From contig CAZECJ010000001.1 in the NCBI GenBank assembly GCA_964510645.1, positions 6,628 to 70,627 on the forward strand: a stretch of DNA of 64,000 nt, written 5' to 3'. Shown piece by piece: positions 35,401 through 61,631 of this stretch. Source of the DNA: an uncultured Verrucomicrobiota bacterium (GTDB lineage: Bacteria; Verrucomicrobiota; Kiritimatiellia; CAIQIC01; Lenti-01). The notes below the pieces were generated by a model, which saw only the letters and a program-made list of their open reading frames with translations, searched no databases and was not told the DNA's origin. Both the position numbers and the translations under genes were made by a program. The first letter of the stretch is position 1. Each line of letters begins with the position of its first letter.

Positions 35401-37052
35401 GGTACATCGGGGCCGGGAACGGAGCCGTGTTCGCCTCGGGCACCAACTTCATCGATTACGCGACCACCTTGACTGCGCCGACGATTTTGACGCCGTCGAA
35501 CACCTTTGTCCATGCGCAGAATCGGTTGCGGATGACGCTGCCCGACGATGCGACGCAGGTGGCCATCCGGATCCTGCGCGGCACGAACCTTTGGTTGAGC
35601 ACCACCGTGCCCGCGCCGTACGTGAACAATGCCGGCGTGGCGGAAATGGATCTGCCGTGGCTGGCGGGATGGGGCACGTTCACCAACGGCAACTACTTCC
35701 TTCAGGTTGGCGCGATCAATCCGCGCTTCTCCGCCGGCGTGTTCTCGGGCTCGAATGCGGCGCCCTTCTCCGTGAATCTGCAGGAGTCTCCGGTGGGCGC
35801 CGGCACGATCAAGGGTACCATGGGCTACTTCGGGACCAATGCCGGTTACTGGGTGGTCGAGGCCTTTGAAGGCGCCGGGTTCGACCAGAAGCCCGTGGCC
35901 CGGACGCGGGCGGTCTCGGCCGGCTCCTACACCATGCGGCCCTACACGTTGCTGGGCCTGCGGGCGGGCACCTATTACGTGCGCAGCTATCTGGACAACA
36001 ACGGCAACTCCGTCCTGGACGAGGGCGAGGCCTGGGGCTTCACGAAGGGCACCGTCTCCAGCGTCAGCCTCCTTCGAAAGGGTTCCGCCGCGAAGACGCC
36101 GGGCGATTCCCAGTCGCCTTATGCGGTGGAATACTCCGTCCGCGCGATCGACGTCGATGCGCAAGGCGCCGCGACCGGAATGGATCTGATGTCCTACGAT
36201 TCGCTGGCTTACCGGAAGGCCGAAATGCACAGCGACAACGACGGATTGACGGATGAAGCCGAACTGGCGCTGGGCACCAGCCCCGTCCGTTGGGACACCG
36301 ACTTCGACGGGCTGAGCGACTACGCGGAAGTCATTGCCGGAACCGATCCGCTCGATGCCGATTCCGACGGCGACGGCATGCCGGATGGGTGGGAAGTCGC
36401 CAACAACCTGAATCCGAAGTGGGCCAACGACGCCGCGCTGGATTCCGACGGCGACGGCCTGTCCAACCTGCGGGAGTCCCAGAAGGGCACCCTGCCGCGC
36501 TTGGCCGACACGGATGGCGACGGCATGAACGACGGGTACGAGGTGACCCACGACCTCGATCCGCTGTCCGCCGCGGATGCCGCGCTGGATGCGGACGGCG
36601 ACGGCCTGACCAACCTGCAGGAACGCCAGCTCAACACCGATCCCAACCGCAGCGATACCGACGGCGACGGCTTGAGCGACGGCGACGAAGTGAGCCTGCA
36701 CCGGACCAATCCGCGCGCCCTCGATTCCGACGGCGATGGGTTCGGCGACGGCGAGGAAGTCGCCTTGGGCACGTACCCGGCCGATGCGGGCGACCATCCC
36801 ACCGGCAAGACCGCCACGTCCCAGTTCGTCCGGATTGCGGCGGCGAAGGGGACCGCCACGGTCGTCTACGTGGTGACGGACCTGACCGGTTCCCCGGTGG
36901 ACGTGATCATCCAGCAGAACGACAACCTGCCGACGCAAGCGGCGTGGACGACGGTCGTGACGCGGGCGATCTCCGCGGCGGGCGTCTATACCAACGTCAT
37001 CGCGGATCCCGACATGGATGGGCGGTTCAACCTGCGGATCCGGACCCGGTAA
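23454..37052 (+). CDS. giant modular secreted protein (~4,500 aa) with thrombospondin-type-3-like Ca-binding repeats, six LamG/ConA-like modules and an internal S8 subtilase
   Basis: The reading frame is uninterrupted for 13.6 kb with protein-like composition throughout. ATG 23454 has GGAGGA 9 nt upstream and overlaps the upstream stop. An alternative ATG at 23538 (GAGGGA upstream) gives a canonical signal peptide MQKSAKRNTWAAGSFLGLALLAAAVFAPAAQA. Domain evidence is in the sub-features below. Confidence 0.95.
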   Translation: MRSISALFGMNDDGQGMETQVKATRGTAMQKSAKRNTWAAGSFLGLALLAAAVFAPAAQAAFCADDWTGLATNYNEFAVLNAWGQMDTVTGKVDFESGYGPSEDADEDGLTNLQEFNGWSATVNGRLVWFTWNQSVSAATNWVNCGPDPENPDTDCDGISDFYEQRYTRTNPQIGDPDLDGIPEPGDTDGDGLWDAIEVFAGLDPCNSGWTLYDTNGLPAPGAQPTGQNPWMDPDGDGLDTAEELPSDAIIQTCATNYNFPTQYLTNDALAVWTSPLDYDTDDDRLIDSFERKFAGNNKFNPIVSEEDNATLAKDADLDSDGYVNFREQCMHPLLGNYWSSMTRTSPKRTPFDTFEIPRTVIRGIGVRYPKRPLDRMDGLYMPNYLNKANFDGAKAVTSFNLSDACPPPAGVLWGSPMATDAGASAKQNFVSVLADGTVVWTEVAAAERWTKPDKTDCDTDGMPDGWEGEHGLNPLLNDNVSGVLGDPDDDMLVNYQEYFGQDGYRIDLVTGTGDESNPWIARSVNFGTLSAFGLRAGQVGYGTRGEQAPSSYIPPYSTAYAPAIYPGFFDASLTVVATNTVYFFDTNTMTGSDIDVVVTNWSPVIGVPAFPDLNDMLELYANYDVLYGNFDMAVNAALPTNGAGAFQPFATSMAGFYYLERVGAEDGRYTPGIDALWQVIHTPGVFTPTVPAEPGPPPVDEVPGDIILSDPDGILLAAVTPIPDLAAGEDPAPSILDNVPLKYPMPGNDTDDDGWPDALEIQMDVRKGRQPTSPVQSHNPMAPRAARVVSDDGMTVTSGSLRQYFAPNFTVEAWVYVEPETGANSFDGTFIQGNVEVPDWGYKARTFDLGVKSINGFDSVPYIEMETLGGKVYRASAARSLPLGQWVHLAGVFGRDQNSLTLYVNGLIEQALQVVEEGACSLAATHTHNGSLIFGKTTTNSLNSFSNRLWIDEIRIWGVPRTSEEIADNRATLIDPVQMTDPATMLYEEENPLLGYFSFDDGGDTAEDLVRRAKCSLLGNLFPYDLTVPGNLDHEYLYHDQYYAINADSIGGAFQFDANNPAPVRGALDSVRGEFDTDSDGLPDSWEIVHQLNPFTPYTPDHNDISARYDPAWGEMSPIIVERTGFVYRTSMDAGITWHETNAPQVAVINGPEIIITPCPKCIIAYTLKDADGAVEESNMSWTLKVGQVTYIQDGQRWYVTDEGLPVKQVTYGGGSNINWIVDTLRDPDGDGLNNQYEYWSQTNPNRSDTDEDGRMDGEEDFDGDGLANRLEATIGCRPDLRDTDDDGETDSVEKSNRTSPIDSVSPPKSMALYLDGNPGSYLYAADRYAFRLRNWTVEAKVLPSDLNSLADGQGASIVRRSVQDATNDMMAANFDLRVVKAGTNLVPEVRYIYVDESEAGQIVSVRGNPANRSHRLTVAATNDPYPSDGLIHLAASYDDEIAELRLYINGALAGSKKFPELSRPLQSGKGSRSFVRIGEGFKGFVDDVRLWSVTRSESDVYNDINSSSLTATGLVARYALNDGGWPAMLVRGKVMAANLSAPPAVPNAGDRYLVAAGASGDWVGKTDRIAEFTGATWDFTEPAAGMRILNAATGDVLEWDGSAWAAPADPVIIRGVDFVGAPPIVNDRMDGVCWLDGGNVVTIDSGMQFTSPAPAQVFCEGADVGAVSAASGDFAWWNSRAEYYRYDGGAWLRWGPAIQWLAPVRLKADGVRADEADLLDDLGARVIGERFVVEAEAAIYTAMSEDGALAENYSVEPMNVNDRILLLAPDQAVKVWDGTALVTLAVASDPIGDLYVWVRNEGIAYKSGGPVGSRIWSRWSLIPSCEDSTVEEDWNAQWSHAAQRSGFGSFRMLEGVLLTGKDTDGDGLPDDWEIAYGLDPNDPTGLNGREGDPDGDGLSNYNEYLLGYDPQDSDTNDNGINDGEEDFDGDGLPNWYEQNITGSRLDLKDTDDDGLTDYDEAIGKGAAKRISSPIWSLDPPVRRSMNFLGNGRLTVEAQARHHLKSWTVMGWIKPSESLAGDSIIVRRTVQSSNLQFDGGDLVNYELGLHEVGPGFFAPYVRHVGVTTSGDGLATNVPVESLVSSVNDTNSVNETSGGHQAAGLIVADEWTHVAGTYDSEAHTMSLFINGELSVYRNDVFPPSGMSLGTDKKVLGDLTIGGGRKEANLVELPFAGWMDDVKVLDGAASQDQIQYEASKQISTTLQTINLAVDPEVRQLPIAEALQYEHTNNFVLVRFKAGSTDSTVAGVASTLGLNVAHSFKIAPIHRMQLAAGDDLAAKLKELRADPNVLYAEPDYVVRADRTPNDPMFIRQWGLQNASLPSADIGAVEAWNQATGSRDVIVAVIDTGVDYTHPDLADNMWVNAGEIPDNNLDDDGNGYVDDVHGWDFSTYDALLGLPANDPMDYNGHGTHVAGIIGAVGNNNQGVAGVNWKVKIMPISFLGYFGMGFTSDAILALEYAWQNGARLSNNSWGGGAYSQALHDAIQMAGAKGHLFVAAAGNSGTDNDLIPHYPSSYDIPYVVAVAASDMSDQLADFSCYGAASVDLAAPGAGILSTWPGSQYVSLDGTSMATPFVSGAAALLLSQDTMLDPLGVKRVLLQSVDALDSLADKVVSGGRLNLAKVVGGSPVLNFRFDDGGAWAEDFTVATDWNSALNGFSKPWFHAAVRDNALFSTNTFVPIFEDSDTDGMPDWWEEAMGLDPLSASGLNGAEGDPDGDGLTNFYEFLAGTNPYDSDTNHDAITDFNADSDGDGLSNGQEQQAGTLPGSEWLGDRVDPADTDDDGEKDAAEIAAGTDPLKATSPDRARAMRFSGSGQLVIPTEHAADASLPWTVEAWVKPVGTGTSGLVIRRAEKIQENGQPWVDYELGLASAIPYVSYAFRAEDGYVVVRLNAPASLPMNEWSHLAAVRDPGTMQTRLFVNGKCVATEADARLPATSLRGVFETTIGTGWIGEIDAVRVWSYARTGVEVQNARGVLLPEANLAGTADKNRAPKRIFNFDDGGQTAENGFYLNDWMADWQNAAVLEGDAALVSAAWPPVDLDSDDDASTDVAERSGNTLVLRSESPYVPRALKFGGLGSVLATEDVDGLETMVYAVSNWTVEAWVKPTAKPTMTTPLVRRATRDGALATFELRLDTNLTVYAGFNREDDGHSIYYVHSGAKKLPTNQWTHLAATYSADDNRLILYVNGVEQIRGTDVSARPVVDRTGRLQLGGFGFMGELKEVRVWNKARSAENVYANFGKTLLFSVAALENSFRATGATGNQSYLGRVTEAIEDGFNYDYTSIGAIGDEYRILNYVQGRLTQKFTLETWIRMQPGAAGGRAVTRQVDLMLVDQGSDWRVNEAIVIEPNGAPAVEWNGQVNIATPIYEEEEIPNPDTSKTNTIKRKVLNRLEYATTVVPRKLISEVDIRDGQWHHLAAVGDSQRIRLYVDGQLETEALSYYEFKARPKPDFETLYWQYPNIGSALRISDGTLQADLDEVMFWNEDRSEEEIRDHMNYGLTTEEIKSWRKPIEPIPENAIDDYAVRQKDMGNAYPRVDLVSYMFFDGTPPLPQVMDAANEPLPYRILPDVNGDEILRNSRPPVFVDRLRALKDDLVGYFAADDGGESAENFMKRNDLGYAGLLQGDARFVAAPVTVGDSDRDGLPDWWEEANDLDAGDPDGANGAYGDADGDGLTNIAEYLAGTDPNNWDTSGNGISDYNSSAGGLTFGEFYMDGDQIPDAWELLYGDVLSPLVNDANTDPDGDGWNNLAEYLGSGFEYVTSSTSVDTNAGSTNYVRWFTAVNTTKPNDAQSFPTPAITFIFTGDCTPSPDATLVVQAFSDSMMRRPDALHSVSNRFVNGLTETVKLWNGGTSSGIGDGHVRQGKNIFMAFIDANKDGKWNAGEWMGYSENGTENIQWGSATVRIALTDKPTGYIRFSWEQQMDAIAAGLSQVNGTTYIVTINSVGTGLNIYSATRSLESMERPYITEMDLKQAGVAPMQSSYRWYIGAGNGAVFASGTNFIDYATTLTAPTILTPSNTFVHAQNRLRMTLPDDATQVAIRILRGTNLWLSTTVPAPYVNNAGVAEMDLPWLAGWGTFTNGNYFLQVGAINPRFSAGVFSGSNAAPFSVNLQESPVGAGTIKGTMGYFGTNAGYWVVEAFEGAGFDQKPVARTRAVSAGSYTMRPYTLLGLRAGTYYVRSYLDNNGNSVLDEGEAWGFTKGTVSSVSLLRKGSAAKTPGDSQSPYAVEYSVRAIDVDAQGAATGMDLMSYDSLAYRKAEMHSDNDGLTDEAELALGTSPVRWDTDFDGLSDYAEVIAGTDPLDADSDGDGMPDGWEVANNLNPKWANDAALDSDGDGLSNLRESQKGTLPRLADTDGDGMNDGYEVTHDLDPLSAADAALDADGDGLTNLQERQLNTDPNRSDTDGDGLSDGDEVSLHRTNPRALDSDGDGFGDGEEVALGTYPADAGDHPTGKTATSQFVRIAAAKGTATVVYVVTDLTGSPVDVIIQQNDNLPTQAAWTTVVTRAISAAGVYTNVIADPDMDGRFNLRIRTR
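25800..33950 (+). other. six LamG / concanavalin-A-like jelly-roll modules within the giant ORF (approx. 25800..26400, 27370..27990, 29400..30050, 31860..32380, 32650..33180, 33290..33950)
   Basis: Each module has an N-terminal strand (N/S/K)-(W/F)-T-(V/L)-E-(A/T)-W-(V/I). A central block reads W-x-H-(L/V)-A-(A/G)-(V/T)...L-(Y/F)-(V/I)-N-G. The C-terminal strand is (D/E)-(E/D/A)-(V/I)-R-(V/I/L)-W-x-x-x-R-(S/T)-x-x-(E/D)-(V/I). This is the pattern I associate with Laminin_G_3-type domains. Boundaries are approximate. Confidence 0.75.
30145..31330 (+). other. internal peptidase-S8 (subtilisin) domain preceded by an I9-like prodomain, inside the giant ORF
   Basis: The prodomain-like block is FVLVRFKAGSTDS...LKELRADPNVLYAEPDYVVRA (about 30145..30360). 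The catalytic Asp is in VAVIDTGVDYTHPDL (Asp codon 30494..30496) and the His in HGTHVAGIIGA (~30681). The oxyanion Asn is in LSNNSWGG and the Ser in GTSMATPFVSGAAALL (Ser codon 31161..31163). Confidence 0.9.
36230..36790 (+). repeat. C-terminal array of ~9 thrombospondin-type-3-like Ca-binding loops (D-x-D-x-D-G-x-x-D/N) in the giant ORF
   Basis: SDNDGLTDEAE, DTDFDGLSDYAE, DSDGDGMPDGWE, DSDGDGLSNLRE, DTDGDGMNDGYE, DADGDGLTNLQE, DTDGDGLSDGDE, DSDGDGFGDGEE. Similar arrays lie at about 23760..24440, 24820..24960, 27130..27345, 29040..29340, 31500..31845 and 34360..34710. Confidence 0.85.
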
Positions 37053-48698: not shown

Positions 48699-51239
48699 AT
48701 GAAATCCATTCAGCCGCAAGCGGGTTCGACGGGGCGCACGGGGCGGGCGCAAGGCATGCTTCTCTTGGCGCTGTTCGCGGTGGCGGCGTTGCTGGTGTTC
48801 CATGCGCTGTGGGCGCCGGGAGCGGTGCTGATGAGCAGCGACGACAACGTGGGGCTGTTGCGCAACAGCCAGCGGATGCTGGAGGCGTCGGCGGTGCATC
48901 CGTGGATGGGGGAAACGCTGTGGGGCATGTCCACGATGAGCATGGTGCGGCCGGGCTACTTCCTGCTGAAGGCCGTTCCGGCGGCGGTCTTCATGAACCT
49001 CTACCACGGCCTGTGCCTGGCGCTCGCGGCTTGGTTGCTGGCGCTGTATTTGCGGGACAAGGGGCTGCGGACGGCCGCGTGCGCGTTCGGCGGGCTGGTG
49101 GCGTTCTGGGTGGGGACGAACCTCACGCTGACCTACGCGGGGCACGTGGGCAAGTACGGGACGATGGTGTTTTTGGCGCTGGCGGTTTTCGCGCTCGGGC
49201 GGTGGGGGAAAACGGGGCGCGCGGCGTGGGGCGTGGCGGCGGGCGCAGCGGCGGGCGCGATGTTCTTGGAACAAGCGGACGTGGCGCTGTTCTGCGCGCT
49301 GCTGCTGGTTCCCTTGGGCTTGTTCGAAGCGTCGCGCGCGGCGGGGGGCTGGACGCTCGCGGCGCTGGCGCGGAAATCGTGGGGCGCCTTGCTCGTGGCG
49401 GCGCTGCTGGCGGGCGGGGCTTCGCTGGCGGCGAAGGGATCGGGCGTGGAAGACGTGCCCGGAGGCGAGGACGCGGCGGCGAAATGGTCGTACCTCACGC
49501 AATGGAGCCAGCCGCCCGGCGAGAGCCTGGACTTCATCGCGCCGGGCTGGACCGGCTGGCGCAGCGGCGACGAAAAAGGCCCGTACTGGGGCCGGATGGG
49601 CCGGAGCGATGGCTACGAACAGACGCGCCAGGGCTTCATGAACTTCAAGCTGGAAAACGTCTACGTGGGCGCGATCCCCCTGCTGTTCGCGGTGCTGGGG
49701 CTGGCGACGGCGTTCGGGCGGCGGCGGGAAGAGGAGTCGCCGTCGGCCGCGATTTTCGTCTGGGGCGGACTCTGCCTCGTGGCGCTGCTGCTGGCGTTCG
49801 GGAAGTTCTTCCCGCTATACAAGCCGCTGAGCCTGCTGCCGGGATTTTCGAGCATCCGCAATCCGAACAAATTCATCCATTTCTTCCAGATGGCCTGGGG
49901 GGTGGCGGCGGCGTTCGGGCTGGACGCGGCGCTGCGGATGGAGGCGCGCGCGCTGCGGAAATGGATATGGGGCGCCGGCATCGCGGCCGGCGTTTTTCTG
50001 CTGTCGGGATTCGCGCTGTGGACCGATCTGGGCGCGGGCGCGGAGCGGCTGGCGTCGGCGGGCTGGGGCCAACTGGGCCGGGCCATCCAGTGGAACAAGG
50101 CGTTTTCGGTGACCTACGCGGGCCTCGCGCTCGCGGTCGGCGCGGGCATCCTGTGGCTGCTGTCGCGGGGAGTTTTCCACAGTGTGGAAAAACCTTTTCC
50201 ACAGCGTGGAAAAAGCGGCGGAATTTTTCCACCGCGTGGAAAAATGTTTTCCACGGTGTGGAAAAATTCGAGCGTGGCGTGGCTTCCGGCGCTCGTCGTC
50301 GTGTTCGACGCGACGGTGATTTTGGCGCCGCACTATATCCAGACGATGCCGAAAGGCTACGTGGCGGAGAACGATCTGGTGCGCTATTTGAAGCGCGAGG
50401 TCGGGCACAACCGGACGGCGATGGCCACGAAGGACGGCTTCTATAATTTCTGGCTGACCTATCTGTTTCCTTACCAGGGGATTCCGACGATCGAAGTGAC
50501 GCAGCTGCCGCGCCCGCCGGCGGACTACGTGGCGTTCTGGAATGCGGTGCAGGATCCGGTGCGGATGTGGAAGCTCGCGGCGGTAAGCCACGTGTTGGCG
50601 CATGGTCCGGTCGCGGCGCAACTCTTGGCAAATCCGGCTTGGGCGGCTCAGATGGAACTGGCGTGGGCTTATCAGCCGATGGACGACGGCCGGGGCGGGG
50701 TAGCCGTGCGCAGCGTGCCGGTGAACGCGAGCGCGCCGGAGGTGGTGCTGAAGATGAAGAAGATTCCGCCGCGCATCGCCGCCGTTTCCTCCTGGCGCGT
50801 GGCGGAGGACGCCGACGCGCTGAAAACGCTGGGCGATCCAGCGTTCGAGCCGTATGCATCGGTGCTGCTGGCGCCGGGGAGCGACGTGGGTGCGCCGCCG
50901 TCGGTGGATCCGGGCCCGCCGGCGGAAGTCGAGATCGCGAAGGCGATTCCAGGGCGCTACGAGTTCACGGTGAAAAACCACGGGCCGGTCGTGCTGCGCG
51001 TGGCGGAGAAGTTTGATCCGAACTGGACGGCGACGGTGGACGGAAAATCCGTGCCGGTGCTGCGGGTCGATTTCCTGTTCCAGGGCCTCGCGCTGGAGGA
51101 AGCCGGCACGCACGTGATCGCCATGCGGTATGCGCCGTCGTCCCTGCCGATCGCGCTGCAATGGATCGGAATCGCGGCCGGACTGGGGGCGGCCGTCGTG
51201 TTGGCGTGGCCCCGGCGCCGGAAAGCGGCGGCGGCGTGA
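48699..51239 (+). CDS. YfhO-like GT-C-fold membrane glycosyltransferase (846 aa) carrying an in-frame repeat insertion
   Basis: The N-terminal two thirds are polytopic. The C-terminal block FDPNWTATVDGKSVPVLRVDFLFQGLALEEAGTHVIAMRYAPSSL plus a final TM matches the YfhO-family ending as I remember it. Confidence 0.72.
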   Translation: MKSIQPQAGSTGRTGRAQGMLLLALFAVAALLVFHALWAPGAVLMSSDDNVGLLRNSQRMLEASAVHPWMGETLWGMSTMSMVRPGYFLLKAVPAAVFMNLYHGLCLALAAWLLALYLRDKGLRTAACAFGGLVAFWVGTNLTLTYAGHVGKYGTMVFLALAVFALGRWGKTGRAAWGVAAGAAAGAMFLEQADVALFCALLLVPLGLFEASRAAGGWTLAALARKSWGALLVAALLAGGASLAAKGSGVEDVPGGEDAAAKWSYLTQWSQPPGESLDFIAPGWTGWRSGDEKGPYWGRMGRSDGYEQTRQGFMNFKLENVYVGAIPLLFAVLGLATAFGRRREEESPSAAIFVWGGLCLVALLLAFGKFFPLYKPLSLLPGFSSIRNPNKFIHFFQMAWGVAAAFGLDAALRMEARALRKWIWGAGIAAGVFLLSGFALWTDLGAGAERLASAGWGQLGRAIQWNKAFSVTYAGLALAVGAGILWLLSRGVFHSVEKPFPQRGKSGGIFPPRGKMFSTVWKNSSVAWLPALVVVFDATVILAPHYIQTMPKGYVAENDLVRYLKREVGHNRTAMATKDGFYNFWLTYLFPYQGIPTIEVTQLPRPPADYVAFWNAVQDPVRMWKLAAVSHVLAHGPVAAQLLANPAWAAQMELAWAYQPMDDGRGGVAVRSVPVNASAPEVVLKMKKIPPRIAAVSSWRVAEDADALKTLGDPAFEPYASVLLAPGSDVGAPPSVDPGPPAEVEIAKAIPGRYEFTVKNHGPVVLRVAEKFDPNWTATVDGKSVPVLRVDFLFQGLALEEAGTHVIAMRYAPSSLPIALQWIGIAAGLGAAVVLAWPRRRKAAAA
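50173..50266. repeat. REP-like locus C: four palindromic units inside the YfhO-like CDS
   Basis: TTTTCCACAGTGTGGAAAAA (50173..50192), TTTTCCACAGCGTGGAAAAA (50195..50214), TTTTTCCACCGCGTGGAAAAA (50224..50244), TTTTCCACGGTGTGGAAAAA (50247..50266). They are translated in frame as VFHSVEKPFPQRGKSGGIFPPRGKMFSTVWKNS. Confidence 0.9.
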
Positions 51240-52270
51240 ACGGCGGAGGCGAAAGCGTTCCGGCGCTGTCGGTGGTGATCCCGACGATGGGCCGGGACAC
51301 CCTGATCCGCACGCTGGAATCGCTGGCGGCGGCGGAGGGCTTCGCGCAGATCGAGGTGATCGTGGCGGGCCGGGTGGCGGCTGCGGACGTGGCGGCGCGG
51401 CTCGGGGATTTCTGCGCGCGGCATGCGAACGCCCGCCACTTGGACATCCAGTTCGAGACGGGCGATTCGAGCCGCAAGAAAAACGAGGGCGCGGCGGCGG
51501 CGCGCGCGCCGCTGGTCGCGTTTCTGGACGACGACGTGGTGGTGGCGCCGGATTGGCCGAAGCGCATCGCGGAACCGTTCGCGGACGCGAAGGTCGGGTT
51601 GGCGAGCGGCCCGAGCCTGGTGCCGGACGACATCAACCGCATCGGCCGGCTGGCCGGTTTGGCGCTGTCGTCGCGCGCGGCGGGCTACGTGGCGGAGCGA
51701 TATCGGCGGAATCGGGACGCCGTCTATGCCGTCGATTGGGACCGGATCATCGGCTGCAATGCGGCATATCGGCAGGAGGCGTTCGCGCAAATGGGCGGGT
51801 TTCCGGCGGACTTCTATCCGGGCGAGGAGATGATCGCCGCGTTCCGGACGGAGCGGGCGGGCTGGAAGCTGGTGTTTATCCCGGCGGCCTGGGTGAAGCA
51901 CTATCCGCGCCAGTCGCTGGTGCGGTTCTGGCGGCAGATGTGGAGCTACGGGGCCACGCGCATCCGGCTGCTGCGGGGGGGGGTGTCGTTCAATCCGTTG
52001 CCGTTGGTTCCCGGATTGTGGGTCGCGGGAACGGCCCTGCTGGCCGCGCTGGCGCCGTTTTTCGGATGGGCGTCCGCGCTGTTGGCGGTCGACGTGGGGC
52101 TCTATGCCCTTCTGGCGCTGGGCGTGGCCGCGGAAACGGTTGCACGGACCCGGCGGGGGAGCGATGGGTGGCTGGTGGCCATGATTCCCTGGATGCATCT
52201 GGCCTACGGGCTGGCGGAATGGAAGGAGTTCTTCCGGCCGGGAGCGGATTTCAGCGAGAAGAAGGGGTGA
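51236..52270 (+). CDS. family-2 glycosyltransferase with C-terminal TM helices (GtrB/CsbB-like architecture)
   Basis: LSVVIPTMGRDTL marks the GT2 N-terminus. An acidic DDD motif (AFLDDDVVV) is present, and the C-terminal hydrophobic helices include LWVAGTALLAALAPFFGWASALLAVDVGLYALLALGV. GTG 51236 overlaps the upstream stop (GTGA). The ATG at 51161 would add an Arg/Gly-rich 25 aa and a 79-nt overlap. Confidence 0.82.
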   Translation: MNGGGESVPALSVVIPTMGRDTLIRTLESLAAAEGFAQIEVIVAGRVAAADVAARLGDFCARHANARHLDIQFETGDSSRKKNEGAAAARAPLVAFLDDDVVVAPDWPKRIAEPFADAKVGLASGPSLVPDDINRIGRLAGLALSSRAAGYVAERYRRNRDAVYAVDWDRIIGCNAAYRQEAFAQMGGFPADFYPGEEMIAAFRTERAGWKLVFIPAAWVKHYPRQSLVRFWRQMWSYGATRIRLLRGGVSFNPLPLVPGLWVAGTALLAALAPFFGWASALLAVDVGLYALLALGVAAETVARTRRGSDGWLVAMIPWMHLAYGLAEWKEFFRPGADFSEKKG

Positions 52271-52420: not shown

Positions 52421-53854
52421 ATGGCCAAGGATAAAGTGGTAGAACAGGACAAGCAACTCGGCTCCGCGCCCGCCGCCGCCGCCGCGGCGGAAGTGGTCGA
52501 AGAGGTGGTGGGATTGACGAGCTCGCGTCCGACCACCGACGCGAACGTCTGGATCCAGGTCATCGGGTCGGTGATCTGCACCATCCTTTTGTGCTCGGGT
52601 TTCCATTTTCTGAACAAGACCCAGGACGTCGCCATCCTGAAGTACATCAACGGGCTGGTCAACCAACGCGGGCCCATCCAATGGCTCGAACTGCTCAGCT
52701 TTTTCGTCATCGTGTTTTTCGTCTTCCAGAAAAACAAGATCCTCAAGAAGCAGATCCTGCACATCGCCGACGACACGGCGCAGCTCCACGGCGTCAACAT
52801 GGAAAGCGAAGAAGAGCTCCAGGGGCTCCGCAAGCGCATCCAGGAAACCGGCGGCGACAAGAAGAGCATCCTGCTGAGCCGCCTGGACCGGGCGCTGGGC
52901 TTGTGGGTGGCCACCAAGGATCTGGGCCGCGTCTCGGGCTGGATCGGCGCGGAAGCGTCGCGCGACAACGCCATGTCGGACATGACCTTCACGATCGCGC
53001 GCCTGATGATGTGGGTGATTCCGATCTTGGGCTTCATCGGCACGGTGCAGGGACTGGGCGCGGCCGTCGGCGGATTCGCCGACTTCCTGTCGGGTTCCGC
53101 GGAACTGTCGGCCATCAAGGGCGCCATCGCGCAGGTGACGATCAGCTTGGGCGTCGCGTTCGACACCACGTTCTTGGCGCTGATGCTGGTGACGTTCGTG
53201 CAGTTCCCGCTGACCTCGCTCATGCGCCGCGAAGGCTCGTTCATGGCGGAGGTCGACATCTATCTGGACGAACATTTCGTCCGCCGCCTGCCCTCGGCCG
53301 AGCAGCAGACGATCATGATCGAAAACCTCGAGGATTCGATCGAAGCCGCGTTCCGGCGCTACATTCCCGATCCGGACCGCTATGAAGAAGTCTTCATGGT
53401 GTCGATCGAGAAGGCCGGCGACGAACTGAAGAAGCAATTCGACGAGCTGACCCAACGGTACGTGGACGTGCGCAAGCTGGCCACCGACGACGAAGTCAAG
53501 GCCTTGGCCGCGGCGATGGAGCACGCGCATACGCGGGCGGCGGAGATGGCCGATCGGTACGCGAGCGCCGCCCGGGAAATCCAAAGCACGCTGGGCGAAA
53601 GCCTCCAGAAAGCGGCCGGCGCGGCGGGAATCGTCGAGCAGCAGATCGCGACGATCGTCGAACTGGGCGCGAAGATCCAGGAGCTGTTGAAGGTCGAACA
53701 GGCGCTGGAGCGCGCCATGGCGGGCATCGCCGGGGCGGAGGAATTCCAGAAGTCCTTCACGCAGCTGCGCGAGCATTTGACGACCACCGACGATTTTTGC
53801 CGCCGCCTGAGCAAGCCGCGGGTGATTACCCTGCACGAGGAAGTCGTTTCCTAG
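52421..53854 (+). CDS. MotA/TolQ/ExbB-family proton-channel protein with ~210-aa C-terminal helical extension
   Basis: The start is MAKDKVVEQ. TM helices are present, with the family signature WVIPILGFIGTVQGLGAAVGGF and ISLGVAFDTTFLALMLVTFVQF. After the last TM there is a long Ala/Glu/Lys/Gln-rich helical region. Confidence 0.8.
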   Translation: MAKDKVVEQDKQLGSAPAAAAAAEVVEEVVGLTSSRPTTDANVWIQVIGSVICTILLCSGFHFLNKTQDVAILKYINGLVNQRGPIQWLELLSFFVIVFFVFQKNKILKKQILHIADDTAQLHGVNMESEEELQGLRKRIQETGGDKKSILLSRLDRALGLWVATKDLGRVSGWIGAEASRDNAMSDMTFTIARLMMWVIPILGFIGTVQGLGAAVGGFADFLSGSAELSAIKGAIAQVTISLGVAFDTTFLALMLVTFVQFPLTSLMRREGSFMAEVDIYLDEHFVRRLPSAEQQTIMIENLEDSIEAAFRRYIPDPDRYEEVFMVSIEKAGDELKKQFDELTQRYVDVRKLATDDEVKALAAAMEHAHTRAAEMADRYASAAREIQSTLGESLQKAAGAAGIVEQQIATIVELGAKIQELLKVEQALERAMAGIAGAEEFQKSFTQLREHLTTTDDFCRRLSKPRVITLHEEVVS

Positions 53855-53878
53855 CGGAGGCGAGCGGAGGCCCCGGCC

Positions 53879-55879
53879 ATGCGGAACGGTTTCCGATTTC
53901 GGCTGTTTCCGGTGCTGTGTGCGGCGACCCTCGCTTGGGCCGCCGGCGCGCGGGGGCAGGCCATGTCCATCCGGTCGCTGGCCGAAGGATTGCAGGAGCC
54001 GACCGGCGCGGCGGTCCATCCCGCCACGGGCGACGTCTACGTGTCGGAAAAGGCGAGCGGCCGGATCCTCGTGCTGAAAAACGGCAAGCCGGAATCGGCG
54101 CTGGCCCCGGACTGGACGGTCTCGGAGGTCTTGCCCCGCTGGGCCATTTCGCAGCAGATGCCGATGGAAAAGTGGATGGAGGCCGCCCTCCAAAAGCCCG
54201 GGGCGATTTCGATTTCCACGAACGGGAAGCTGTTCGTGGCGGAGCAGATTCCCAACGGCCGCATCCTGGAATTCTCGGCGAACGAACAGGGGCAGTTCGC
54301 CGTCGCCAAGTGCGTGCCGGTGCCGTGGCTGGACCAGGAGTTCCAGTGGCGCGATCTGTATGTCGATCCCGGCGGGCGCCTGTATGTCGTCGGCGCGGAC
54401 GAAGTGGGGTCGGACTTCATGAAATTCGGTTCCGCCCTCATGCGGGAGCCGGACGGCAACTGGTGGGTGATCGACTTCGGCCCCTTCGCGAACTTCGGCG
54501 CGTTCGCGATTTCCGAGCGGCAAGACGTGATGTTGCTGGGCGACCGCAACAAAGGGGCGTTGTCGTGGTGGGAAGTGGATCGCCACATGATGCTGGGCGG
54601 CGCGCCGGAGGCGTCGGGCCGCTCGGAACTGTCCAGCCTGGCCCTCTATCCGGACGGAACCTTCATCCTCGGATTGCAGGACGCGCCCGGCAAGGCGAGC
54701 CTGATGCGGATGGAGCCCTTCACCGGCCAGCAGAAAATGCTGACGGAAGAGCTGAAGTCCGTCGGCGCCATCGCGATGGACCGGAAAAACGCCCGCTATC
54801 TGGTGACGGATCCCGCGGCGGGGCGCCTGCTGGAATGCACGCCCAATCCGGCGATGAAATTCAACGAGACGGTCATGCGGCAGATCGTCCGGTCCGCCGA
54901 GGGCATGATGGGCATGCCGTCGGAAGCGCCGGCCTTCCTGAACAATTTCTTCGACCGCCTGCAGGATGCCGCCAAGGAAATCCTGCCGGAAGATTCGACG
55001 CATTCGGTGGAATTCAACCTCAGCGACATCGCCGGCAAGATGCCCATCGTGGCCGGCCGGGTGCGGGCGGCCGTCGAGGTGGAAGGCGCGGAAGCCGATC
55101 CCATCGAGGAGGTGGAATTCTTCCTGCTGTTTCCCAGCAAGGTGGTGCTGACGGAAACGGCGGTCAGCCCCAGCCTGAGTTTCTTCTCCGCCAAGCGCAA
55201 GAGCGGCAAGATCGAGCAGACCAAGCCGATTTTCGAGGGCGACGTGGGCGTGTACCGCCTGTCCGGCACCAATATTTCCAAGGTCGCTTCGGCGCCGGGC
55301 GGATTGCACATCCCGGTGGTGGTTTGCGGGATCGAACAGGCCGATGGCGGCGTCTACGTGAACCTGTCCTTCCTCGGGGCCGGCATCTATGGGGACTACT
55401 ATCTCACCCTGTTCCAGGGCCCGCGCGAGCAGAAAGCCAAGCTGGTGGTCAAATCGACGGGCACGGAAAGCGGCAGCGTCACCTACGATGCTTCCTTCAT
55501 GGAAGAAGCCACCATCGAAGGCATGGACGGCGACAAGATCACGAAGGAGCAGTTCAGCAACCTGCTGATTTCCGGATTCGGCGGCGCCGGGGGCGGCGCC
55601 AACCGCTCCGTCGGCTGGCTCAAGCTCGGCCAGTTCCCCGCGAGCATGACGGTGGCGTTCGGCGATTCGTCGGGCGACGCCACGCTGACGGGCGCCCAGA
55701 CCGGCCTGAAGGAAATCGTCGATAAGAAGCGCGTGGAAATGAGCTTGGACTCGACGGCCGACATCGAGGAATTTTCGCCGAACGGCGCCGCGCCGGCCGT
55801 CGGCGGCGCCCCCGCCGCCGCAGAGCCCGCGCCTGAATCGCCGGCGCCCGCCGCGCCGACGGCCCCGGAGGAACCCTAG
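53879..55879 (+). CDS. secreted protein with an N-terminal beta-propeller-like domain, a C-terminal domain of unknown fold and a Pro/Ala-rich tail
   Basis: Signal peptide MRNGFRFRLFPVLCAATLAWAAGARGQA. Blade-like motifs are GDVYVSEKASGRILVLKNG, GKLFVAEQIPNGRILEF, GGRLYVVGADE and ARYLVTDPAAGRLLEC. It ends in PAVGGAPAAAEPAPESPAPAAPTAPEEP. GGAGG lies upstream of the ATG. Confidence 0.7.
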   Translation: MRNGFRFRLFPVLCAATLAWAAGARGQAMSIRSLAEGLQEPTGAAVHPATGDVYVSEKASGRILVLKNGKPESALAPDWTVSEVLPRWAISQQMPMEKWMEAALQKPGAISISTNGKLFVAEQIPNGRILEFSANEQGQFAVAKCVPVPWLDQEFQWRDLYVDPGGRLYVVGADEVGSDFMKFGSALMREPDGNWWVIDFGPFANFGAFAISERQDVMLLGDRNKGALSWWEVDRHMMLGGAPEASGRSELSSLALYPDGTFILGLQDAPGKASLMRMEPFTGQQKMLTEELKSVGAIAMDRKNARYLVTDPAAGRLLECTPNPAMKFNETVMRQIVRSAEGMMGMPSEAPAFLNNFFDRLQDAAKEILPEDSTHSVEFNLSDIAGKMPIVAGRVRAAVEVEGAEADPIEEVEFFLLFPSKVVLTETAVSPSLSFFSAKRKSGKIEQTKPIFEGDVGVYRLSGTNISKVASAPGGLHIPVVVCGIEQADGGVYVNLSFLGAGIYGDYYLTLFQGPREQKAKLVVKSTGTESGSVTYDASFMEEATIEGMDGDKITKEQFSNLLISGFGGAGGGANRSVGWLKLGQFPASMTVAFGDSSGDATLTGAQTGLKEIVDKKRVEMSLDSTADIEEFSPNGAAPAVGGAPAAAEPAPESPAPAAPTAPEEP

Positions 55880-55881
55880 CC

Positions 55882-56472
55882 ATGGGTAAGATGGCCGATT
55901 TTGATTCCTCCGGATTCCAGAACATCGTGCTGATGCTGATCGGCGTGCTGATGATGATGCTGGTCAGCAACGTGCTGACCATCATCAGCAATCCGGAGAA
56001 CATCAAGATCGGCGCCTTGGTGACGGGCTCCGTCTACGGCGAGGACGAGGAAAAAGACACCTTCATTCCCCCCAAGTTCCAGAACATGAAGCAGGATCCC
56101 ATCTACGTGGACGTGGAGCCCACCCGCTTGATTATCCATCCGGAACAACGGGTCATCGAAGCGCGGGACCTGGTCTTCGAGGGCAACGATTTCGAGCAGT
56201 TCCTGGACGACGTGGAGCGCGTGAAGTCCGTCCGCTACATCGTCCTGCTGCTGCGCCCCGGCAGCGCCACGTTCCAGCGCAAGCTGCGCCAGGTCATCCG
56301 CGACCGCGGCATCGACGTGGGCTTCGAGCCGTGGGATACCGGCCGGGAAATCATGGTGCTCGGCGCGCCGCCCCCGGCGGTCGCCCCGCCACCTGCCGCC
56401 GCCGAACCCGCTCCCGGCGGAGAAGCGGCCCCGGCGGCCACCGCCGAACCCAGCGCCGGGGAAGGGACGTAG
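55882..56472 (+). CDS. ExbD/TolR-like single-pass protein, paralog 1 (Asn at the TM Asp position, Pro/Ala-rich tail)
   Basis: The N-terminal TM SGFQNIVLMLIGVLMMMLV aligns with ExbD/TolR PFIDVMLVLL, but with N14 instead of D. The periplasmic block is VRYIVLLLRPGSATFQRKLRQVIRDRGIDV. The tail is PPPAVAPPPAAAEPAPGGEAAPAA. The start is 2 nt after the upstream stop. Confidence 0.6.
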   Translation: MGKMADFDSSGFQNIVLMLIGVLMMMLVSNVLTIISNPENIKIGALVTGSVYGEDEEKDTFIPPKFQNMKQDPIYVDVEPTRLIIHPEQRVIEARDLVFEGNDFEQFLDDVERVKSVRYIVLLLRPGSATFQRKLRQVIRDRGIDVGFEPWDTGREIMVLGAPPPAVAPPPAAAEPAPGGEAAPAATAEPSAGEGT

Positions 56473-56475
56473 GCC

Positions 56476-57102
56476 ATGGCATCCGGACCCGCAATGGATT
56501 TGAGCTCGTTCACGGACCTGATGACCTGCATCTTGGGCGTGCTGGTCTTGATCATTTTGCTGACGGGCATCGACGCGTCGCAGATCACGGTGCTGGTCGC
56601 CACGCCCAAGGAAATGCAGGGCGACGACAAGAGCCCCGTGTTTTTCGAATGCCGCAAGAACCAGCTGTTCCATATTTCGGTCGAGGAATTGAAGGCCGCC
56701 TGCGACGCCAAGACCCAAGAGCTGCAAGAGCGGGTGGCGGGCGACGAAACCGAGTTCCTGAAGCAGGCCGCCCAGACCATGCTGGAATTGAATGGCCAGA
56801 AACTGGACTACACCTACGCGCTGATGGGCAAATACGTCCTGATGCCGATCCCCGACGCCGAAGGCTACGCCTTCGAAAGCCAGTCGAAAGAAACCGCCGA
56901 CAAGTGGTATGGCTCGCGGCTGGCGAACATCGATCCGGCGACCCAGTTCATCTGCTTCCTCGTGCGGCCGGACAGCTACCGGGTTTTCCAGCGCGCCCGC
57001 AACATGGCCTGGATCCGGAACATCAACGTCGCCTGCGAGCTGCAGGACGAGAAAAACCCCATCATGATCGGCCCCGGCGGCGAACGCATGTTCATGCAGT
57101 AG
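56476..57102 (+). CDS. ExbD/TolR-like single-pass protein, paralog 2 (TM Asp retained)
   Basis: The TM segment is SSFTDLMTCILGVLVLIILL with D14 (codon 56515..56517). The periplasmic block TQFICFLVRPDSYRVFQRARNMAWIRNINV is paralogous to the upstream gene. Confidence 0.6.
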   Translation: MASGPAMDLSSFTDLMTCILGVLVLIILLTGIDASQITVLVATPKEMQGDDKSPVFFECRKNQLFHISVEELKAACDAKTQELQERVAGDETEFLKQAAQTMLELNGQKLDYTYALMGKYVLMPIPDAEGYAFESQSKETADKWYGSRLANIDPATQFICFLVRPDSYRVFQRARNMAWIRNINVACELQDEKNPIMIGPGGERMFMQ

Positions 57103-57125: not shown

Positions 57126-57431
57126 ATGTCCTCCTTCGTCTGCCAACGCTGCGGCGCCTGCTGCCGCTGGCCGGGCTCGGTGCTGCTGGAGGACGCCGAC
57201 GTCGCCGCGGCGGCCGCCGCGCTGGGGCTCGCCGAGGGGGAGTTCATCGAACGGCACGCGGCCCTCGCGCGGAACCGCGCGCAGCTGACGCTGAAAGAAC
57301 AGCCCGGCGGCGCCTGCGAATTCCTCGCCGCCGACGGCCGCTGCCGCATCTACGCCGCGCGGCCGAAGCAGTGCCGCGATTTTCCGCGCGCCTGGCGGGT
57401 CGACGGCTGCCCCGGCCTCGAACCCGGGTGA
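57126..57431 (+). CDS. YkgJ-family (UPF0153) cysteine-cluster protein
   Basis: 101 aa. It has MSSFVCQRCGACCRW (CxxCxxCC) and GACEFL..DGRCRIY.ARP.QCRDFP. The 56331 start in the track is an artefact. Confidence 0.8.
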   Translation: MSSFVCQRCGACCRWPGSVLLEDADVAAAAAALGLAEGEFIERHAALARNRAQLTLKEQPGGACEFLAADGRCRIYAARPKQCRDFPRAWRVDGCPGLEPG

Positions 57432-60077: not shown

Positions 60078-61631
60078 TTACGGAATCACCAGGACGGAAT
60101 AGCCGGCGGCCGCCTTGATCTGCAGTTTGCCTTCGTATTCGCCGACTTCGCCGGTCGCGGCGACCTGCGCGCCCTCGCCGAGGGCGTTGAGCACGTCGAC
60201 GGGAATGATGGATTCCCAGAGGACCAGATCGATCGTGCCCGTGGTGTCGGTCAGCGCATAGGCCACGCCGCCGCGCAGGGCGCGCGGCGCGCCGAGCGTA
60301 CCCTTGACCACGCGGACCTGGCCCTTTTCGGCGGCCGTGATGGAGGAAACCGGAACGGCTTGCGCGGCGTCCACGGCCGGGGCGGAGGCGGGCACGTCGT
60401 CCACCAGCTTGACCTTGTAGCCGCTTTGCACCTTGAGCTGGGGCCGGTCTTGGTACGTCTCGACCACGCCTTCCATCTCGAACAGCGCGCCGGGGGTGGG
60501 CTTGACGGCGATCACGTCGTTCACGTTGGACCAGTAGGTCGCGCGCAGCGAAGCGTCGCCGTCCTTGAGCACCACCGCGTACGGCTGCTTGGTGCCTTCC
60601 TTGGGGGCGCTGACGGAGGCGACGCGTCCGCGGACGCGGATGGTCTGGCCGGCTTGCGCGGCGGTCACTTCGCCGACGGACAGGCTGTTGGCCTGCACGG
60701 AACGGCCGCGGGAGAAATCGCGCGGGGCGGGGGCCGGGGCTTCTTTTTCATAGGCCGCGGCGGCTTTCTGGGCCGGGGTGGAATCATCGGCGGCGGGGGG
60801 CGGGCCCTCGAGGATTTCGAGGTCCTGGCCGGCGGCGAGCTTGAGCTGGAGCTTGTCTTGGTAGGCCGCCACGGAAACGCGGGCGCGGACGTAGGCGCCG
60901 TTCAGCACGTCCTTGCCTTGGATCTGGTCGTATTCCGCCTGCCAGAAGTTGAGGGTCTGCTCGCCGGAGTCGTCCTTGAGCTTGAGGGCGTAGGGGCGCT
61001 TGGAATCCGCCGGCGGCGGAAACAGGTCCAGCACCTTCCCGGCCACCGTGACCGACGTGCCTTTCATGGCCGTCGTGATGTCCGCCAGCCGCACCGCGAC
61101 CGCCGGGGCGCGGGTCAAGCGGAACTCGTCCACGCTGAGCAGCCGCATCGAGGATTTGTCGTCGGCGATGTTCAGCCCGCCGGCGAAGTTGACCTGGTCG
61201 CCGGCCTTGGGCACGAGGTTTTTCTCGACCATTTCCTGGGCCTGCTTCTGGCTGATGAAGACCATGATCGTGCCGGTGCCGTCGGAGAAGTTGAAGCCCA
61301 TGCCGCCGCCGGTCCGGAACGTGCGCGCATCGCTGTCGACCACGCCCTCCACGCGGATCTGCGCGAAGTTCATCGTCGGCTTGACTTCGCCCAGCTTGAC
61401 GAGCGGGATTTCGCGGTGCTTGGCCATCAGGAAGAGGAGGAAAAGACCGACGGTCGACAGCAAGACGGCCGCCCAGCGGATGGCCACCAGGCTCATGCGC
61501 TTCTCCACCTTCGACCCGCAATAGGGGCATTTGGTCACGGCACCGACGAAGCGGCCGCATTTCGGGCAATTCATTTCCTCCGATTGGGTTTCGTGTCCGG
61601 GTAGCGCTTGCTGGTTGTCCGTCATGCTCAT
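60078..61631 (-). CDS. zinc-ribbon / single-TM / four tandem OB-fold-like domains protein
   Basis: The zinc ribbon is CPKCGRFVGAVTKCPYCG and the TM is LVAIRWAAVLLSTVGLFLLFLMA. Four ~100-aa repeats follow the pattern V.V.G.V...(Y/F)(A/N)..L.D..G......W.........G..V...G.V..Y....QLK. The ATG at 61625 has better SD spacing than 61631. Confidence 0.7.
   Translation of the reverse strand: MSMTDNQQALPGHETQSEEMNCPKCGRFVGAVTKCPYCGSKVEKRMSLVAIRWAAVLLSTVGLFLLFLMAKHREIPLVKLGEVKPTMNFAQIRVEGVVDSDARTFRTGGGMGFNFSDGTGTIMVFISQKQAQEMVEKNLVPKAGDQVNFAGGLNIADDKSSMRLLSVDEFRLTRAPAVAVRLADITTAMKGTSVTVAGKVLDLFPPPADSKRPYALKLKDDSGEQTLNFWQAEYDQIQGKDVLNGAYVRARVSVAAYQDKLQLKLAAGQDLEILEGPPPAADDSTPAQKAAAAYEKEAPAPAPRDFSRGRSVQANSLSVGEVTAAQAGQTIRVRGRVASVSAPKEGTKQPYAVVLKDGDASLRATYWSNVNDVIAVKPTPGALFEMEGVVETYQDRPQLKVQSGYKVKLVDDVPASAPAVDAAQAVPVSSITAAEKGQVRVVKGTLGAPRALRGGVAYALTDTTGTIDLVLWESIIPVDVLNALGEGAQVAATGEVGEYEGKLQIKAAAGYSVLVIP

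Follow-up and report, generated by a model that had tools for sequence, protein, structure and literature searches.

Introduction

In current torque models for the ion-driven "5:2" membrane motors, a superfamily that includes MotAB, ExbBD, TolQR, and ZorAB, the axle consists of two identical helices whose Asp residues alternate in proton binding, and both axle Asp residues are used in the known motors. In the anti-phage motor ZorAB, the D26N variant of ZorB is inactive, and ZorA's tail in the cytoplasm passes the signal to effectors (PMC11946911). A heterodimeric axle has been predicted for the AglRQS motor, as AglR5:AglQ:AglS in a 5:1:1 arrangement (PMC11761067). In addition, clusters of the Planctomycetes-Verrucomicrobia-Chlamydiae (PVC) superphylum were described that contain a gene for a TPR protein, a tolQ-like gene, two heterologous tolR-like genes, and a vWA transducer (Mol Biol Evol 2025, PMC12204202); the vWA-fused pairs carry Asp on both partners (PMC12204202). 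Here, a cluster of four genes (designated g1 to g4) was analyzed, which lies on a stretch of 64,000 nucleotides (the window) from an uncultured Verrucomicrobiota bacterium of the class Kiritimatiellia (GenBank assembly GCA_964510645.1, contig CAZECJ010000001.1, positions 6,628 to 70,627 of the forward strand) and probably encodes a divergent member of the 5:2 superfamily, with an axle composed of two different proteins of which only one carries the Asp.

Results

A triad of g1, g3, and g4 is the conserved unit

The four genes (Table 1) follow each other with intergenic gaps of 24 (g1-g2), 2 (g2-g3), and 3 nt (g3-g4), which agrees with the initial annotation of the cluster. For g1, the ATG at position 52421 is favored as the start over an alternative upstream GTG (52382) because close homologs all begin with MAK. 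The G+C content of the window is ∼65%, and the closest database relatives of the cluster proteins are found in metagenome-assembled genomes (MAGs) of Kiritimatiellia, which places the organism among the Kiritimatiellota of the PVC superphylum; across this class, identity ranges from 64 to 98% for g1 and from 69 to 98% for g4. A scan for promoters and terminators yielded nothing above chance. All searches of the source genome covered the 64-kb window.

To place the cluster in a wider context, a set of 82 loci was compiled from the best 80 of 588 confirmed g1 relatives, which had been retrieved with the g1 family alignment as the query against one genome for each GTDB species, and two further loci from an identity look-up. 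When the open reading frames (ORFs) of these loci were searched with hidden Markov models, g1 was directly followed by a g3-like and then by a g4-like gene in 74 of the 82. Three of the eight exceptions (L004, L042, and L078) are truncated at g1 or shortly behind it; in each of the remaining five, a partner gene escaped detection or classification. Loci with the triad belong to Kiritimatiellia, Verrucomicrobiia, Lentisphaerota, and many Cyanobacteria (among them Richelia, Anabaena, Tolypothrix, Pleurocapsa, Waterburya, and a Synechocystis MAG). That both partners directly follow g1 in most loci of four phylum-level groups argues for an obligate co-function. In RefSeq, the first protein of the cyanobacterial triad is named "MotA/TolQ/ExbB proton channel family protein," and each of the other two is a "hypothetical protein." The conserved unit is the g1-g3-g4 triad and not the four-gene set that had been proposed at first, of which the synteny survey upheld these three genes; g2 was present in only 20 of the 82 loci.

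g1 is a divergent channel subunit with a helical tail

In g1 of the window, Pfam MotA_ExbB (PF01618) matched residues 169-256, but below its threshold (17.0 bits, cutoff 22.9; E 0.005); the NCBIfam search gave no match. The protein has numerous relatives, however: an exhaustive phmmer search retrieved 2350 cluster representatives at E ≤ 1e-3 (790 at E ≤ 1e-10), and relatives with 25-45% identity (phmmer E 1e-29 to 1e-78) pass the MotA_ExbB cutoff with 28-38 bits. Four transmembrane (TM) helices are predicted (about residues 43-67, 85-107, 195-220, and 238-262), and the AlphaFold2 (AF2) model, calculated from an alignment of 21 sequences, has a predicted local distance difference test (pLDDT) score of 80-93 over residues 40-290. 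When this model was compared with the PDB using Foldseek, the best 50 matches were all chains of ExbB, TolQ, ZorA (including 8vvn), PomA, or MotA, and those to ExbB, TolQ, and ZorA had a probability of 1.00 and a TM-score by target of 0.5-0.6. Consistent with this, hhalign aligned the g1 family with TolQ (E 7.5e-5) and ExbB (E 1.6e-4) from E. coli, and the invariant residues P201, G204, G207, T208, and V209 of g1 coincide with the "P..G..GTV" pore motif of these two proteins. Thus, g1 combines the pore motif with a TM and membrane-proximal domain of the ExbB/TolQ/MotA-type helical fold, and it is accompanied by a single-pass partner, g4, with an invariant Asp in its TM helix (Asp14).

The last TM helix is followed by a helical tail of about residues 270-477, within which residues 321-463 form a single continuous helix in the AF2 model; the initial view of g1 as a protein of the MotA/ExbB family with a helical extension is borne out in both its parts. 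The C-terminal end of g1 carries a conserved motif, LSKPRVITLHEE, and across the family the C-terminal motif (S/N)KPRxIT(L/F)xE was found in 60 of the 65 sequences that could be scored. A membrane-proximal motif, FRRYIPDPDRYEEVF, is conserved as well. Tail length varies between 187 and 351 amino acids (aa) in these 65 members, owing to insertions in the middle of the tail, with both ends conserved. Homology with ExbB, TolQ, and ZorA, together with the K/R-rich loops read from the sequence, places the tail in the cytoplasm in this prediction. A periplasm-spanning, TolA-like linker, as which the extension had also been regarded, is ruled out on topology.

The sole named NCBIfam family to which g1 relatives could be linked was the anti-phage protein ZorA: ZorA_2 was matched at E values of 3.8e-13 to 5e-5, and the tail matched ZorA_1. 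All of these matches were far below threshold (22-49 bits, cutoff 100). The window's g1 itself matched neither NCBIfam ZorA model, and its match to PADLOC ZorA3 had an E value of 0.006. In some database records, g1 relatives are labeled "ExbB/TolQ" and one g4 homolog "ExbD." Thus, g1 is a real but very divergent protein of the MotA/ExbB/TolQ superfamily, equipped with a short ZorA-like cytoplasmic tail.

An unequal pair of putative ExbD-like paralogs

The paralogy of g3 and g4, already noted in the initial annotation, is robust on profile comparison. Family alignments with 69 and 73 members, which cover the four phylum-level groups, were matched by hhalign with a probability of 99.6% (E 3.5e-24), and the TM helix lies within the 149 aligned columns; lower but concordant scores were obtained with a narrow profile (hhalign E 7e-5) and in the pairwise comparison (BLASTP E 3e-4). 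Compared with g3, g4 contains an insertion of ∼60 aa in its periplasmic domain.

The two paralogs differ at one position of the TM helix. In g4, Asp14 (SFTDLM) is invariant in the close alignment, and Asp occupies this position in 76 of 76 loci, whereas g3 of the window has Asn14 (GFQNIV), which is invariant in the close clade only. In the wider g3 family (n = 77), the position is taken by Ser (38), Asn (16), Cys (13), Ala (4), Asp (4), or Pro (2). The surrounding N-terminal motif resembles that of ExbD: ExbD has PFIDVML and g4 SFTDLMT, compared with PFLSILA in cyanobacterial g3 and GFQNIVL in g3 of the window. Asn is therefore a trait of the window's clade, whereas the pattern that holds in general is an Asp that is always retained in one paralog and almost never in the other. 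The earlier notion of a heteromeric or partly degenerate plug is a reasonable one, because the split into an Asp-bearing and an Asp-less partner is conserved across phyla.

The four g3 proteins with Asp all derive from a second, more divergent triad (∼29% identity to g1), which was observed in Kiritimatiellia (L040, L041, L043, and L046) and in which both axle paralogs carry the TM Asp (PFLD and SFCD). Three of these genomes also contain the first triad (L041, L043, and L046, with L030, L024, and L027, respectively). The retention of Asp in the second-triad g3 proteins suggests that the ancestral axle had Asp on both partners.

The assignment of g3 and g4 as ExbD-like draws on several lines of evidence, which are individually weak and mutually consistent, and the original assignment holds to that extent. 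Cyanobacterial g3 orthologs matched Pfam ExbD and TIGR TolR over most of each model, though only with E values of 0.009-0.013 or 16 bits (cutoff 25.4). With E. coli ExbD as the query, phmmer found g4-like ORFs (E 5e-4), and hhalign of the g3 family with ExbD gave an E value of 4e-4 over 69 columns, which cover the TM helix and the first strands. The periplasmic domain of g4 was modeled by AF2 with a pLDDT of ∼90, and TolR from E. coli (5by4) came first among the PDB matches of this model, albeit weakly.

g2 is a lineage-specific NHL-type propeller

Between the channel gene and those of the axle, the initial annotation had placed a secreted β-propeller. This description fits g2, whose N-terminus reads as signal peptide-like from the sequence and whose residues ∼30-330 correspond to a six-bladed propeller of the NHL type. 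The Pfam NHL repeat was matched with 24.9 bits (cutoff 20), and in 15 of 16 family members; in the PDB, the g2 family profile retrieved six-bladed NHL propellers, among them the PknD sensor domain (E 1e-12) and the designed Pizza proteins (E 5e-21). The C-terminal, β-rich half (∼300 aa) matched no Pfam family. The comparison with TolB drawn at the outset is not supported, since g2 is of the NHL type and has no significant similarity to TolB from E. coli (E 0.24). All 20 loci with g2 belong to the window's wider clade, which makes g2 a lineage-specific insertion between g1 and g3 and rules out the propeller as a core component.

Both g2 and g3 end in Pro/Ala tails, which had been described as similar. 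They indeed have AAAEPAP in common (41 nt at 73% identity), but in sequence of low complexity, and the tail is dispensable: that of g3 is variable and missing from orthologs of 163 aa. The idea that the tails serve as a functional, TonB-like spacer was rejected, because they are variable and missing from many orthologs and because their likeness at the DNA level is one of low complexity.

The triad is inherited with envelope-biogenesis genes in Kiritimatiellia

In a sister clade of 13 Kiritimatiellia species, the triad is part of the arrangement g1-g3-g4-fabZ-lpxA-gspD-gspE-gspF, whose genes share a strand and overlap at their stop and start codons. Motor, lipid A synthesis, and secretin genes are thus seen in one apparent operon, for example, at L036 (7956-16827) and L038 (7899-16745). 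Median pairwise identity within this clade is 57% for g1, comparable with 61% for LpxA, 60% for FabZ, and 57% for GspD, and pairwise divergence of g1 correlates with that of the three neighbors (Spearman rho 0.55-0.83, highest with GspD at 0.83). Such a pattern is expected when core genes are passed on vertically as a group. Kiritimatiellia thus inherit the triad vertically together with genes for envelope biogenesis, either YfhO-like and glycosyltransferase genes or fabZ-lpxA-gspDEF.

Other groups have other neighbors. In Verrucomicrobiia, the triad is followed by genes for a conserved membrane protein of 344 aa and a repeat-rich protein of ∼630 aa, which could be clade-specific partners in the role of g2. 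Two tandem copies of this pair are present at L050 (10865-16138) and L054 (10859-16419); the 344-aa protein had no Pfam match, and the ∼630-aa protein reads as HEAT-like by eye. In at least one locus of this class (L050), lpxA lies ∼5 kb downstream on the opposite strand. The chromosomal neighborhoods in Cyanobacteria are mostly housekeeping and heterogeneous, and the PADLOC matches around them are mostly generic kinases plus one Cmr4 (upstream of the triad in Richelia, L047). A conserved fourth gene upstream of the cyanobacterial triad was considered and ruled out, because the ORFs found upstream belong to several groups that are specific to their clades and unrelated to one another.

Two plasmid-borne triads of Cyanobacteria occupy clear defense islands. 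On plasmid pANACY.03 of Anabaena cylindrica PCC 7122 (L085, 41-11580), the triad is flanked by type III-B CRISPR genes on one side and by a viperin gene on the other. On plasmid p1 of Microcystis aeruginosa NIES-2481 (L086, 521-14947), its neighbors encode an N6-methylase, a nucleotidyltransferase with SLATT, a helicase-related protein of 1094 aa, DUF559, NUDIX, HNH, and GIY-YIG proteins, and an integrase. In two Nostocales loci (L085 and Richelia L047, 1397-10272), the triad was observed directly downstream of, and co-oriented with, a type III-B (Cmr) CRISPR-Cas module and a gene for a conserved hypothetical protein of 509/510 aa, which is 89% identical between Richelia and A. cylindrica. The triad of Nostocales could represent a CRISPR-associated accessory arrangement.

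Surroundings of the cluster in the window

In the closest clade, the cluster is embedded in a stable block of seven genes with varying flanks, in the order YfhO-like, glycosyltransferase, g1, g2, g3, g4, and CxxCxxCC (Table 1). The first two are upstream neighbors in this clade only (L001-L012 and L087). They overlap each other and directly precede the cluster, and as a pair resemble a periplasmic glycosylation system that uses lipid-linked sugars. The CxxCxxCC gene begins 23 nt after g4 and is a conserved downstream neighbor of g4 in several Kiritimatiellia clades (L001-L012, L017, L019-L021, L031, and L087); it may be the fifth member of the operon. In Lentisphaerota (L044 and L045), it was observed upstream and on the opposite strand.

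Two further ORFs of the window stood out. The first has the appearance of a giant protein, either secreted or located at the surface, judging from its signal peptide-like start, many thrombospondin type 3-like, Asp-rich calcium-binding repeats, repeated LamG/concanavalin-like modules, and embedded motifs of subtilisin-like S8 proteases (DTG...HGTH...GTSMA). The second combines an N-terminal zinc ribbon and a TM segment with several OB-fold domains of the tRNA_anti-codon type, which is unusual for a membrane-anchored protein.

Table 1. Cluster genes, adjoining genes, and two further ORFs of the 64-kb window (window coordinates).
Feature	Position	Strand	Description
g1	52421-53854	+	477 aa; channel or "wheel" subunit, divergent MotA/ExbB/TolQ/ZorA-fold
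g2	53879-55879	+	666 aa; secreted/periplasmic, NHL-type β-propeller
g3	55882-56472	+	196 aa; single-pass ExbD/TolR-like "axle" paralog without TM Asp
g4	56476-57102	+	208 aa; single-pass ExbD/TolR-like "axle" paralog with TM Asp
YfhO-like gene	48699-51239	+	846 aa; polytopic membrane protein, GT-C type; Pfam YfhO sub-threshold; context
Glycosyltransferase gene	51161-52270	+	family 2; Pfam Glyco_trans_2_3, Glyco_tranf_2_3, and Glycos_transf_2 pass; context
CxxCxxCC gene	57126-57431	+	101 aa; YkgJ-like, putative Zn/Fe-binding; Pfam PF03692, 46.9 bits
Giant ORF	23415-37052	+	4545 aa
OB-fold ORF	60078-61631	-	517 aa

Discussion

A proposed 5:2-type motor with a single-Asp axle

The cluster is best explained as a divergent member of the ion-driven 5:2 motor superfamily with a heterodimeric, single-Asp axle, to which we assign a probability of roughly 0.6. 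In such a machine, a pentamer of g1 would be the wheel and proton channel of the inner membrane, with the C-terminal helix of ∼200 aa protruding on the cytoplasmic side in a short, ZorA-like bundle. The pore of g1 would hold the axle, formed jointly by the N-terminal TM helices of g3 and g4, whereas the ExbD/TolR-like domains of these two proteins would pair in the periplasm. With a protonatable Asp on g4 only, one proton-binding site instead of two would drive the conformational cycle. The g2 propeller would probably be a periplasmic co-worker of g3 and g4 in this clade only. The motor could couple the proton-motive force to a process of the envelope or outer membrane, with the cytoplasmic tail as either its output or its input arm. 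The 5:1:1 stoichiometry, the proton drive, and the cellular role are what we infer from these data: the two paralogs are proposed to form a heterodimer because they are encoded together and are complementary in their Asp status, and an envelope-related housekeeping role is favored because of genomic context and inheritance.

Several observations weigh against this explanation. No curated family model of Pfam or NCBIfam passes for any of the four proteins, except for one NHL repeat in g2, and g3 and g4 of the window matched no model of these libraries, with ExbD (PF02472) and TolR (TIGR02801) absent even at E ≤ 1. In the PDB, the best Foldseek match of the g4 model was TolR from E. coli (5by4), but a weak one (E 0.19, probability 0.51, TM-score by target 0.45), and the profiles of g3 and g4, used as queries at the sequence level, retrieved neither ExbD nor TolR, yielding chance matches for g4 and none for g3. 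The g3:g4 heterodimer and its stoichiometry are deduced from gene organization and residue pattern, and the envelope role is deduced from gene neighborhood. In Cyanobacteria, no conserved neighbor of the triad was found, and two plasmid-borne triads of this phylum reside inside defense islands. Finally, Asp-to-Asn mutants of the known motors are dead (e.g., ZorB D26N; PMC11946911), so that a device with one Asp might be regulated or non-rotary. A natural axle of this kind would imply either that the stepping cycle is asymmetric or that the movement is non-processive and resembles that of a switch.

The defense islands bring up the possibility that the cluster is a Zorya-like anti-phage module for abortive infection or sensing, in which the tailed motor would sense a perturbation of the envelope at phage entry and either signal via its tail or depolarize the membrane. 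The long cytoplasmic helical tail does recall ZorA, ZorA_2 and ZorA_1 are the sole named families of g1 relatives, and PADLOC gave weak matches to ZorA and ZorB; the triads of pANACY.03 and Microcystis p1, and Cmr4 upstream of the Richelia triad (L047), are in line with such a function. However, the scores for the ZorA families are always below cutoff, neither axle protein contains the OmpA-like peptidoglycan-binding domain of ZorB, and no clade has a conserved effector equivalent to ZorC, ZorD, ZorE, ZorF, or ZorG. Moreover, the triad behaves as a core gene set in Kiritimatiellia, with stable synteny, high conservation, and a divergence that tracks that of housekeeping neighbors, and its chromosomal neighborhoods in Cyanobacteria are, as described above, mostly housekeeping and heterogeneous. 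A defense module, although the main rival, is an unlikely explanation for the cluster of the window.

Less likely still is a divergent energizer of the Ton type, that is, an ExbB-ExbD-ExbD assembly which powers TonB-dependent or analogous uptake across the outer membrane (e.g., of iron) via a transducer encoded elsewhere. ExbB and TolQ are the best structural matches of g1, and the record names "ExbB/TolQ" and "ExbD" of some homologs speak for it. The same annotation pattern as that of the triad is found in the iron stress-induced operon sll0477-0479 of Synechocystis, annotated as ExbB-like protein followed by two hypothetical proteins and called exbB/exbD3/exbD4 (PMC4195498, PMC8634477); its homology to the triad is putative, as is a link to alr4587 (exbB2) of Anabaena. 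Against a Ton-type function, neither TonB nor a TonB-dependent receptor is encoded in the cluster or the window, and Tichowtungia (Kiritimatiellota) was reported to lack both TonB and TolA (PMC12204202). Furthermore, nothing in ExbB corresponds to the ZorA-like cytoplasmic tail (190-350 aa), and the second axle protein lacks the Asp. The combination of one TolQ-like and two different TolR-like proteins is also the architecture of AglRQS, and in the sister clade the triad is co-oriented and overlaps with gspD-gspE-gspF, GspD being the protein whose divergence g1 fits best. Hence, the triad might energize a trans-envelope apparatus, either one of the Agl kind or a secretin machine, that acts in surface motility or secretion. 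We consider this highly improbable, because no secretin or Glt-like genes adjoin the cluster of the window or the triads of Cyanobacteria and Verrucomicrobiia, and because adjacency to gsp genes in a single clade may be mere operon history.

A more far-reaching explanation can be put forward tentatively, with less than even odds: the triad would constitute an unrecognized, phylum-spanning class of 5:2-type motors with an obligate heterodimeric single-Asp axle and a ZorA-like tailed wheel, which serves a housekeeping function at the envelope of PVC bacteria lacking TolA and TonB, whereas its cyanobacterial branch was co-opted for, or derived from, phage defense. The Kiritimatiellia and cyanobacterial branches of the family may accordingly differ in role. 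Since the motor is co-inherited with lipid A and secretin genes, and TolA and TonB are reportedly lacking (PMC12204202), it is a candidate for the energizer of outer membrane processes in Kiritimatiellota. The triad would also amount to a natural experiment on whether one Asp site suffices and on what motion results; if true, it would put the model of two alternating Asp residues to the test.

Comparison with known systems

The initial annotation had already set the cluster apart from an ordinary Tol-Pal or ExbBD-TonB locus, and such a locus is now ruled out: no curated Tol or Exb model passed, the cluster contains no gene for TonB, TolA, TolB, Pal, or an OmpA-like protein, and phmmer searches with TolQ, TolR, TolA, TolB, ExbB, and ExbD from E. 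coli found no homologs elsewhere in the 64-kb window. What the triad has in common with ExbB-ExbD and TolQ-TolR are the best structural matches of g1, the "P..G..GTV" motif of its TM helix, and, for the axle proteins, an ExbD/TolR-like N-terminal TM motif (sF.D, with the Asp in g4) and a predicted periplasmic β-α-β domain. It differs from them by an additional N-terminal TM helix and the long cytoplasmic tail of g1, by an axle of two paralogs of which one lacks the Asp, and by the ∼60-aa insertion of g4.

With ZorAB, the triad shares a channel of the MotA/ExbB fold with a long cytoplasmic α-helical tail and, as its partners, single-pass proteins that bear an Asp in the TM helix (for the features of ZorA, see PMC11946911). 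However, the tail of the triad is shorter (∼190-350 aa, compared with ∼500 aa in ZorA), two different axle proteins take the place of the ZorB homodimer, scores are far below the ZorA cutoffs, and the context in Kiritimatiellia is that of vertically inherited core genes. Membership in Zorya is further disfavored by the lack of an OmpA-like domain in the cluster and by PADLOC ZorB matches that are confined to the TM segment (E 0.017-0.044). The tail of g1 nevertheless links the housekeeping motors ExbB and TolQ with the defense motor ZorA and thus bears on the origin of Zorya.

The gliding motor AglRQS of Myxococcus resembles the triad in that one TolQ-like and two distinct TolR-like proteins are encoded together, and its predicted axle is a precedent for that of the triad. 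The ZorA-like tail of g1 sets the two systems apart, as does the lack of any detectable specific sequence relationship; genes for Glt partners were not found near the triad in a search that was local, not genome-wide. The PVC clusters with a vWA transducer, compared here by description only, occur in the same superphylum and likewise combine a tolQ-like gene with a non-identical pair of tolR-like genes, but no TPR or vWA gene adjoins the cluster of the window.

The architecture of the triad is not described in recent surveys (PMC12505986, PMC12204202), one of which, the FIT/GIT classification of MotAB relatives, omits ZorAB and does not mention the triad family (PMC12505986). Thus, the kind of motor, a 5:2 assembly of the MotA/ExbB type, is already known, and its heteromeric axle has a predicted precedent. 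What appears to be undescribed is the family itself, its occurrence in Cyanobacteria as well as PVC bacteria, and the pairing of a wheel that has a ZorA-like tail with a single-Asp, ExbD-like heterodimer that manages without a peptidoglycan-binding or TonB/TolA partner.

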